Part shown: piece after piece, positions 13,032 to 13,302 of the stretch
Position numbering within the stretch: the stretch's first letter is position 1
Layout: every line of letters begins with the position of its first letter
NCBI RefSeq assembly: GCF_003334315.1
Contig: NZ_QOWR01000060.1
Length of the DNA: 28,819 nucleotides
Strand: one strand, 5' to 3'
Source: Escherichia coli
Lineage (GTDB): Bacteria > Pseudomonadota > Gammaproteobacteria > Enterobacterales > Enterobacteriaceae
Notes under the pieces: generated by a model
The model's input: the letters and a program-made list of their open reading frames with translations, nothing else
Told to the model about the DNA's origin: nothing
The model's database searches: none
Translations under genes and position numbers: made by a program

Positions 13032-13302
13032 TATCTTTCCCCTGAAAAATTCAAAATCATTAATATAGAAACAGTTAATCATCACGTTACCGTGACTGCG
13101 CTGCCCCTGCAATTCTTCATTTTATCAAAATTGAGCATATTTTGTTAACTTGATGATATTTAATATTTTATTATCTTTAAATGTAAATAGTTTGTTAATT
13201 AGATCACATTTACATCACTTACTTTTGCCAAACTACGCAATCGGGAATAAAAGTAATCATTAACATATTAATGATTAAGATGATCGAATCCGAGGAGTGG
13301 TA
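13032..13302. promoter_or_regulatory. hpaR / hpaG divergent promoter region with three palindromes (candidate HpaR operators)
   Basis: AT-rich. Perfect inverted repeat TAATCATTA-acatat-TAATGATTA at 13254..13277, just upstream of the hpaG SD; TGTAAAT...ATTTACA at 13182..13214; TCACG-ttac-CGTGA at 13082..13095. Confidence 0.6.

Follow-up and report, generated by a model that had tools for sequence, protein, structure and literature searches.

Two HpaR operators of Escherichia coli W, a palindromic one named OPR1 and a half-palindromic one named OPR2, were reportedly footprinted at the hpa Pg/Pr promoters by Galan, Kolb, Sanz, Garcia and Prieto in 2003 (Nucleic Acids Res 31:6598), and the binding is said to be cooperative. 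According to PMC6888825, HpaR attaches to the DNA between hpaR and hpaG and represses hpaR itself as well as the hpaG operon, one target is placed around +47 of the hpaR promoter, and a repression loop between the two targets is proposed. 4-Hydroxyphenylacetate is the inducer (PMC2791445). The HpaR protein of Yersinia pseudotuberculosis gives footprints at the hpaG1 promoter on two TTAA-N4-TTAA sites, described as 'similar to E. coli W' and located at -189 and -8 (PMC7180172). At the nadA promoter of Neisseria meningitidis, NadR operators lie over the promoter and at a distal position; efficient repression requires IHF, which binds in between, and looping has been proposed (PMC2791445). In the structure of Acinetobacter baumannii HpaR in complex with DNA, a dimer contacts a pseudo-palindrome symmetrically (7EL3; Permsirivisarn et al. 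2022, FEBS J).

The stretch of DNA analyzed here (the window, 28,819 nucleotides or 28.8 kb) is a segment of the E. coli chromosome containing the hpa (4-hydroxyphenylacetate) cluster, flanked by tsr and btsT; it has 100% identity to strain 162.2 over the query window, and a search of 5426 complete E. coli genomes found the region in 2073. The hpaR gene (12585-13031, minus strand, with its ATG at 13031) encodes a MarR-family repressor of 148 aa that matches NCBIfam TIGR02337 HpaR at 201 bits (cut-off 121), and its product is annotated as WP_000543916.1 in both strain 162.2 and E. coli W. We note that PMC6441110 places HpaR among the LysR proteins, which is a misclassification. The first gene of the hpaGEDFHI meta-cleavage operon, hpaG (13303-14592, plus strand, with its ATG at 13303), is assigned from NCBIfam NF011750 (978 bits) and from its annotation, and direct reading of the sequence places a GAGGAG ribosome-binding site at 13292-13297 on the plus strand, 5 nt before the ATG. 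Between the two genes lies an intergenic region of 271 bp (13032-13302) with 29% G+C.

For the comparison of this region HpaR was aligned from 16 genera and 80 loci were fetched, one genome per species. The hpaR and hpaG genes are divergent in all 77 fetched loci that have both, and these loci together with the window form a set of 78 intergenic sequences representing about 25 genera of the Enterobacterales. A fine map was made by aligning the 50 Enterobacteriaceae intergenic sequences, and separately all 78 were anchored on the CRP-like site. Several conserved blocks emerge from the fine map: the left half of the distal operator, an element at 13146-13158, a TGTAAA motif, the core of the CRP-like site, TTGCCA/TAAAA, and the proximal operator. 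Among eight diverse E. coli alleles, polymorphism is concentrated at 13079-13179, and there is none in the arms of the operator, in the left half-site of the distal one, in the CRP core or in the -35 and -10 hexamers. The region of E. coli W (NC_017635) differs from the window at about 12 positions in the polymorphic stretch 13093-13170, and is identical to it in both operators, in the CRP-like site and in all of 13182-13302, as well as in the HpaR accession.

The original prediction offered three palindromes in this region as candidate HpaR operators overlapping both promoters, and added a twice-occurring TTTGTTAAYT; a sequence check recovers every one of these strings at the positions given here. 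The first, the string TAATCATTAACATATTAATGATTA at 13254-13277, had been described as a perfect palindrome with 9-bp arms and a 6-nt spacer. It is indeed perfect, and a repeat search shows that it is better read as two 10-bp arms around a 4-nt spacer, TAATCATTAA-cata-TTAATGATTA, with its dyad at 13265.5. Its 3′ end is 25 bp before the hpaG ATG at 13303, in agreement with the distance of about 25 bp first given, and 15 nt upstream of the ribosome-binding site. To obtain chance levels, the intergenic region (271 bp, 29% G+C) was shuffled 5000 times with its dinucleotides preserved; 54 of the shuffles (1.1%, p ~0.011) held a perfect inverted repeat whose arms were 10 bp or longer and whose spacer did not exceed 10, and among the flagged features this palindrome alone exceeds chance in its own right.

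The conservation of this segment is extensive. The core TCATTAA-YATR-TTAATGA is found in all 78 sequences; in 77 of them it precedes the hpaG ATG by 34-67 bp, the outlier being one Photorhabdus sequence in which it is 179 bp upstream of hpaG; in Xenorhabdus and Photorhabdus the core reads TTATTAA-TATA-TTAATAA. The perfect 10/10 symmetry of the arms is largely an E. coli trait, and in most other genera 6-8 of the 10 arm positions pair while specific bases are kept, a pattern of lost symmetry and retained bases that fits a protein site. Among the eight E. coli alleles the sole change is at two symmetric positions of the spacer, from CATA to TATG in one strain; inversion of the palindrome was considered for this change and set aside, as an ancestor with a TATA-like spacer could equally well have given rise to it by single changes at symmetric positions. 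When the whole 28.8-kb window was scanned with an operator matrix, 13254-13277 was the best match at 26.3 bits, a score that is partly circular because the matrix was built from proximal sites. The segment begins 1 bp after a conserved -10 TAAAAG, 65 bp from the dyad of the CRP-like site, and carries the TTAA-N4-TTAA core recognized by HpaR (per PMC7180172). Its proposed function as an HpaR operator is well supported by its identity in E. coli W, by the presence of the same core as in the Yersinia footprints, and by the conservation of position and core in the 78 sequences. A full-text literature search with the operator sequences themselves returned no match. From secondary citations of the 2003 paper, whose palindromic OPR1 we take to be 13254-13277, and from the identity with strain W, we have high confidence that this segment is the high-affinity HpaR operator OPR1 already published.

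A different segment, at 13054-13077, emerges as the putative weak distal operator and matches the published OPR2. It is situated in the leader of hpaR, 34 bp before the ATG of that gene, with an intact left half, AATCATTAA, at 13055-13063, a degenerate right half (GAAACAG) and a dyad at 13065.5. A repeat search finds 12 nt of the OPR1 right arm recurring as an exact inverted copy at 13055-13066, and in the matrix scan the segment is the second-best match in the 28.8-kb window, with a weak score of 3.8 bits. The distal and proximal dyads are exactly 200 bp apart, and a site this good at a distance of 195-205 bp occurred in 11 of 20000 shuffles. The TTAA at 13060-13063 is invariant in the 50 Enterobacteriaceae sequences, and the distal site is 193-205 bp upstream of the proximal one in 75 of the 78 sequences, with a distance of 197-201 bp in nearly all Enterobacteriaceae. 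This operator spacing is steady despite variation from 261 to 513 bp in intergenic length and from 23 to 256 bp in the distance between the distal site and the hpaR ATG (78 sequences). A constant spacing could alternatively reflect rigid promoter modules rather than looping. We also note that 13054-13077 is outside the span originally flagged and was therefore missed there.

With the half-site and its spacing described, the remaining two palindromes can be considered. That all three are operators, with HpaR dimers at 13082-13095, 13182-13214 and 13254-13277 overlapping both promoters, is very unlikely, even though the three inverted repeats exist, they fall in a region known to bind HpaR (PMC6888825), and the TGTAAA in the left arm of the second is conserved. 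The two extra palindromes are unlike the TCATTAA half-site, and their matrix scores are far below that of OPR2. MarR dimers bind pseudo-palindromes of 16-20 bp (see also 7EL3), and a gap of 19-21 nt between half-sites is unfit for such a dimer. The palindrome TGTAAAT-N19-ATTTACA (13182-13214) has a real arm size of 8 bp, and 29% of shuffles contain arms this long or longer with a spacer of up to 30; its right arm, ATTTACA at 13208-13214, lacks conservation across genera and differs among E. coli alleles. A TyrR box has the spacing TGTAAA-N6-TTTACA, and this reading of the same palindrome was rejected with its half-sites TGTAAA (13182-13187) and TTTACA (13209-13214) 21 nt apart and the right one unconserved. 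The palindrome TCACG-ttac-CGTGA (13082-13095, the string TCACGTTACCGTGA) is a chance feature of this allele: arms of at least 5 bp are present in 99.5% of shuffles, and the palindrome is unconserved in the alignment across genera and broken in all seven other E. coli alleles including W, six of which read CGGGA while the seventh has an insertion. The T at 13093 that completes it is a minority allele, with G in six of the seven others.

Neither of these two palindromes is thus sustained as an operator, both being at chance level and unconserved across genera and E. coli alleles, and they are evidently chance matches without a role. Conservation in other hpa clusters had been named beforehand as a comparison that could refute the operator proposal, and in those clusters 13254-13277 is conserved and the other two palindromes are not. 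The repeat TTTGTTAAYT (copies TTTGTTAACT at 13141 and TTTGTTAATT at 13191) also falls away as an HpaR feature, since it is at chance level, the second copy belongs to the CRP-like site as its left half, and the first overlaps both an IHF-like core and the predicted -35 of hpaR. The first copy was also considered as a second CRP site and rejected, its right half TGATA matching at 3 of 5 positions and other genera having ATTAA on the left.

The CRP-like site itself spans 13190-13211, holds the second TTTGTTAAYT copy, and has the core TGTTA-attaga-TCACA at 13193-13208 with a dyad at 13200.5. Compared to TGTGA-N6-TCACA the core has one mismatch, the right half and flank being perfect; a match of at least 8 of 10 is present in all 78 sequences, the core is invariant in the Enterobacteriaceae, and its dyad is 65-66 bp from that of the proximal operator in 76 of 78. 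The predicted hpaG promoter Pg (13225-13253, plus strand) has a -35 TTGCCA at 13225-13230, a 17-nt spacer and a -10 TAAAAG at 13248-13253, of which TTGC and TAAAA (13248-13252) are invariant or nearly so in the 50 Enterobacteriaceae sequences and the eight E. coli alleles. From these elements we infer that hpaG transcription starts at about 13260-13262, within the palindrome. Between the CRP-like dyad and the downstream predicted -10 the distance, measured to the first base of the hexamer, is 47.5 bp, which corresponds to about -60 to -61.5 from the predicted start; in class I CRP-dependent promoters the dyad is near -61.5 (or -72.5). The weakness of the -10, together with a conserved CRP-like site that precedes the predicted start by about 60 bp, suggests that cAMP-CRP would be needed for full activity, and no description of catabolite repression of hpaGEDFHI was found in the literature searched.

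On the other side, a promoter scan predicts the hpaR promoter Pr at 13119-13148 on the minus strand, with a -35 TTAACA (13148-13143), an 18-nt spacer and an extended -10 TGaTAAAAT (13127-13119), giving 10 of 12 matches with the TG; this region is polymorphic within E. coli. The predicted hpaR start is near 13112, and the center of OPR2 at 13065.5 would be at about +47, in agreement with the position given in PMC6888825. The expectation that operators would overlap both promoters does not hold for hpaR, as OPR2 at about +47 (PMC6888825) is downstream of its promoter and does not overlap it.

The predicted hpaG start bears on whether 13254-13277 could instead act as a nucleic-acid structure, either as a hairpin in the hpaG leader RNA that influences translation or stability, or as a DNA cruciform. 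A 32-nt RNA segment does fold into a 10-bp hairpin (-6.8 kcal/mol, z = -4.4), and the palindrome is close to the ribosome-binding site, at the 15 nt given above. However, a start at about 13260-13262 would be inside the palindrome and would leave its left arm untranscribed, RNA from 13262 is without a stable fold (-1.4 kcal/mol), the stem is nearly all A-T, and other genera, which mostly pair 6-8 of 10 positions, keep TCATTAA/TTAATGA and have no compensatory changes, which is the signature of a protein site. The RNA-hairpin role was rejected on the start position, the folding of RNA from 13262 and the lack of compensatory change, and the structural explanation as a whole is extremely improbable. 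It is every bit as improbable that a different regulator of A+T-rich palindromes mainly binds 13254-13277 and that HpaR acts elsewhere, for although the site is A+T-rich and such DNA attracts nucleoid proteins, the motif accompanies hpaR in all 78 sequences and keeps its place with respect to hpaG, a second copy of its half-site is found in the leader of hpaR, the site of HpaR autoregulation, and the Yersinia orthologue gives footprints on the same TTAA-N4-TTAA motif (PMC7180172).

Between the two HpaR operators there is a further conserved element at 13146-13158, which reads TAA-N4-nTGAT on the plus strand and resembles an IHF core on the minus strand. IHF cores have the consensus WATCAANNNNTTR with an A+T-rich 5′ flank; the window has TATCATCAAGTTA on the minus strand (TAACTTGATGATA on the plus strand), with one mismatch, and an A+T-rich tract at 13159-13181 on the 5′ side of the core. 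The IHF-like core keeps a constant distance from its neighbors, 47.5 bp to the dyad of the CRP-like site, 113.5 bp to that of OPR1 and about 86 bp to the distal operator, and at this offset a core with 0-1 mismatch is present in 62 of the 78 sequences, compared to 1.9% at random offsets. The consensus across the 78 sequences is a perfect match to the IHF core, and the E. coli polymorphisms within it are on N positions and at 13153. From this conserved core between the operators, from the operator spacing of 197-201 bp in the Enterobacteriaceae, which holds while the sequence in between varies, and from the NadR-IHF-NadR arrangement at nadA, we tentatively raise the idea, for which we would give somewhat less than even odds, that the HpaR repression loop is an IHF-assisted, length-constrained nucleoprotein complex conserved across the Enterobacterales. 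The sole point here that is possibly new is a conserved putative IHF site midway between operators whose spacing, about 200 bp, is length-constrained.

The TGTAAA motif at 13182-13187, the left arm of the N19 palindrome, is conserved alone, 11 bp upstream of TGTTA; it is invariant or nearly so in the Enterobacteriaceae and also occurs in Hafnia, Edwardsiella, Serratia and Yersinia. A reading of the motif as a minus-strand -35 (TTTACA) was rejected, no conserved -10-like hexamer being present in the alignment 16-18 bp downstream. TGTAA at 13182 and TGTTA at 13193 form a conserved direct repeat 11 bp apart, which resembles an ArcA box in its geometry. ArcA boxes consist of two direct repeats with an 11-bp center-to-center spacing (PMC3798270). 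We regard this as a lead because ArcA represses other aromatic-oxidation regulators, and speculate that the TGTAAA-N5-TGTTA repeat, which overlaps the CRP-like site, could add anaerobic (ArcA) control.

These elements can be assembled into a model. An HpaR dimer would occupy the two TCATTAA half-sites of OPR1 directly after the hpaG -10, covering the predicted start, and would there exclude or trap RNA polymerase such that hpaGEDFHI is off. OPR2 would be filled cooperatively, probably via looping of the intervening DNA, and the conserved operator spacing of about 200 bp fits cooperation through a loop; HpaR on OPR2 would be a roadblock to hpaR transcription, accounting for autoregulation. 4-Hydroxyphenylacetate and related acids would release HpaR from the DNA, after which full hpaG expression would presumably still need cAMP-CRP at 13193-13208. 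The literature is the source for the binding of HpaR, for its two targets, for the inducers and for the loop model; the evidence added here consists of the sequence, the statistics, the identity to the footprinted strain, the conservation of both sites, the CRP-like site and the spacing, and the exact start sites and the CRP dependence are deduced.

The operator and repression-loop system is already known; the main palindrome was reportedly footprinted in 2003, in a strain with identical operator sequence. The original interpretation is partly supported: it was right for one of three palindromes and missed the true second operator. What is gained is a fixed annotation of the intergenic region, comprising a pair of HpaR operators, the CRP-like site and the two predicted promoters, and the removal of two false candidate operators. 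Across roughly 25 genera the two operators stay about 200 bp apart and the CRP-like site 65-66 bp from the proximal one, which provides comparative support for the published loop model, and the IHF-like element, if confirmed, would link HpaR to a mechanism shown for its homologue NadR.

Among the known systems the closest is the hpa Pg/Pr region of E. coli W, which has the same two targets, reportedly a palindromic one at the hpaG promoter and, in the leader of hpaR, one that shares half of it; the second target near +47 and the repression loop are as given in PMC6888825. Its operators are without difference from those of the window, and one polymorphism creates the TCACG-ttac-CGTGA of the window. 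Yersinia has a similar arrangement, with one core-promoter site and one distal site between divergent hpaR and hpaG1 genes (PMC7180172), and by sequence measurement Y. pestis has the same two sites 180 bp apart and a CRP-like site 65 bp from the proximal one. However, the Yersinia spacing is 180-181 bp compared to 200 in the window, and its half-sites are TTATTAA/TTGTTAA rather than TCATTAA. The Yersinia proximal site is at -8 and overlaps the -10 (PMC7180172), whereas that of the window is just after the -10 with the predicted start inside it. NadR (5AIP) is the closest solved homologue of HpaR (E = 6e-44) and, like it, responds to 4-hydroxyphenylacetate and uses a pair of promoter and distal operators (PMC2791445), but its target is an adhesin gene and its operator spacing is set by a phase-variable repeat. 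IHF binding has been demonstrated at nadA (PMC2791445), whereas the window has a conserved consensus match. The HpaR protein of A. baumannii is a more distant MarR-type homologue (E = 1e-32; PDB 7EL2/7EL3).

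The main palindrome, which is the proximal HpaR operator OPR1 (window 13254-13277), has the spacer CATA both in the window and in E. coli strain W, in which HpaR has been footprinted. E. coli SCPM-O-B-8794 (locus L002, 2228-2500) has TATG instead, as do some Kluyvera and Pseudenterobacter, and many genera have TATA. The spacer varies at two positions, window 13264 and 13267, that are symmetric about the dyad, and the whole operator can thus be read as an 18-24-bp palindrome, TCATTAA-YATR-TTAATGA. A half-palindromic copy, AATCATTAA-tata-GAAACAG, is located in the hpaR leader at window 13054-13077, with a spacing of exactly 200 bp to the main palindrome in the window, and matches the published weak operator OPR2. 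This copy falls beyond the span (13082-13277) of the original prediction, in which three palindromes were proposed as candidate HpaR operators.

Sequence variation within E. coli is unevenly distributed, and about 38 of the 49 variable columns among eight alleles (L002, L082-L087) lie in a polymorphism hot zone at window 13079-13179, spanning from the distal operator to the TGTAAA motif. All of these alleles agree in the operators, in the CRP core, and in the -35 and -10 elements. Identity of the intergenic region is 95-99% in most genomes, compared to at least 99% for the flanking genes in most. The regulatory region is intact in E. coli 90-3040 (L084), although the annotation lists the hpaG of this strain as a pseudogene that contains an internal stop. 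Strain 162.2 (L001, 3429-4543), whose sequence is identical to that of the window over the query, has a yjjB annotated as frameshifted and a dnaT annotated as partial.

Enterobacter, Citrobacter, Leclercia, and their relatives (e.g. L007, L010, and L025) have in common a block that E. coli does not have, consisting of AAAAAGTCTAACAGAAA and TTTTTAT-AAACAAC, in the alignment columns corresponding to window 13095-13135. Read on the hpaR strand, this block gives TTGACA-16-TAAAAA, much nearer to the distal operator, so that the hpaR promoter appears to be placed differently in these genera than in E. coli.

The TGTAAA motif (of the element at window 13182-13197) is invariant in the Enterobacteriaceae, and 11 bp downstream of it comes TGTTA, which makes up the left half of the CRP-like site at window 13193-13208. 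Together these form a direct repeat that overlaps the CRP-like site and has the geometry of a candidate ArcA box; a mirror pair, TCACA/TCACT (13204 and 13215), is present on the opposite side. The only zero-mismatch CRP match in the window is elsewhere, with the perfect core TGTGATCTCAATCACA at 23804-23819, in the interval that separates the end of hpaC from btsT.

E. coli BS-04 (L088, NZ_CP172819, 2477-3540) is without the hpa cluster; a degraded hpaR remains, together with the intergenic region, ending just past the hpaG -35 and fused to sequence upstream of btsT, with the details of this remnant being unreliable because the assembly contains many homopolymer-type errors. Tsr is 554 aa in the window (10802-12466), where it has seven consecutive glutamines close to its C-terminus, and 551 aa in BS-04 (L088 821-2476); this three-codon length polymorphism is possibly located in the glutamine stretch.

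Between the two HpaR operators, and at a fixed offset, is a conserved IHF-like core on the minus strand at window 13146-13158 (WATCAANNNNTTR, one mismatch in the window), adjoined by an A+T-rich tract at 13159-13181. The core is found with 0-1 mismatch in 62 of the 78 Enterobacterales sequences, compared to 1.9% at random offsets. Its conservation and fixed position between the operators suggest that repression by HpaR may involve an IHF-assisted loop, by analogy with the NadR-controlled nadA promoter.
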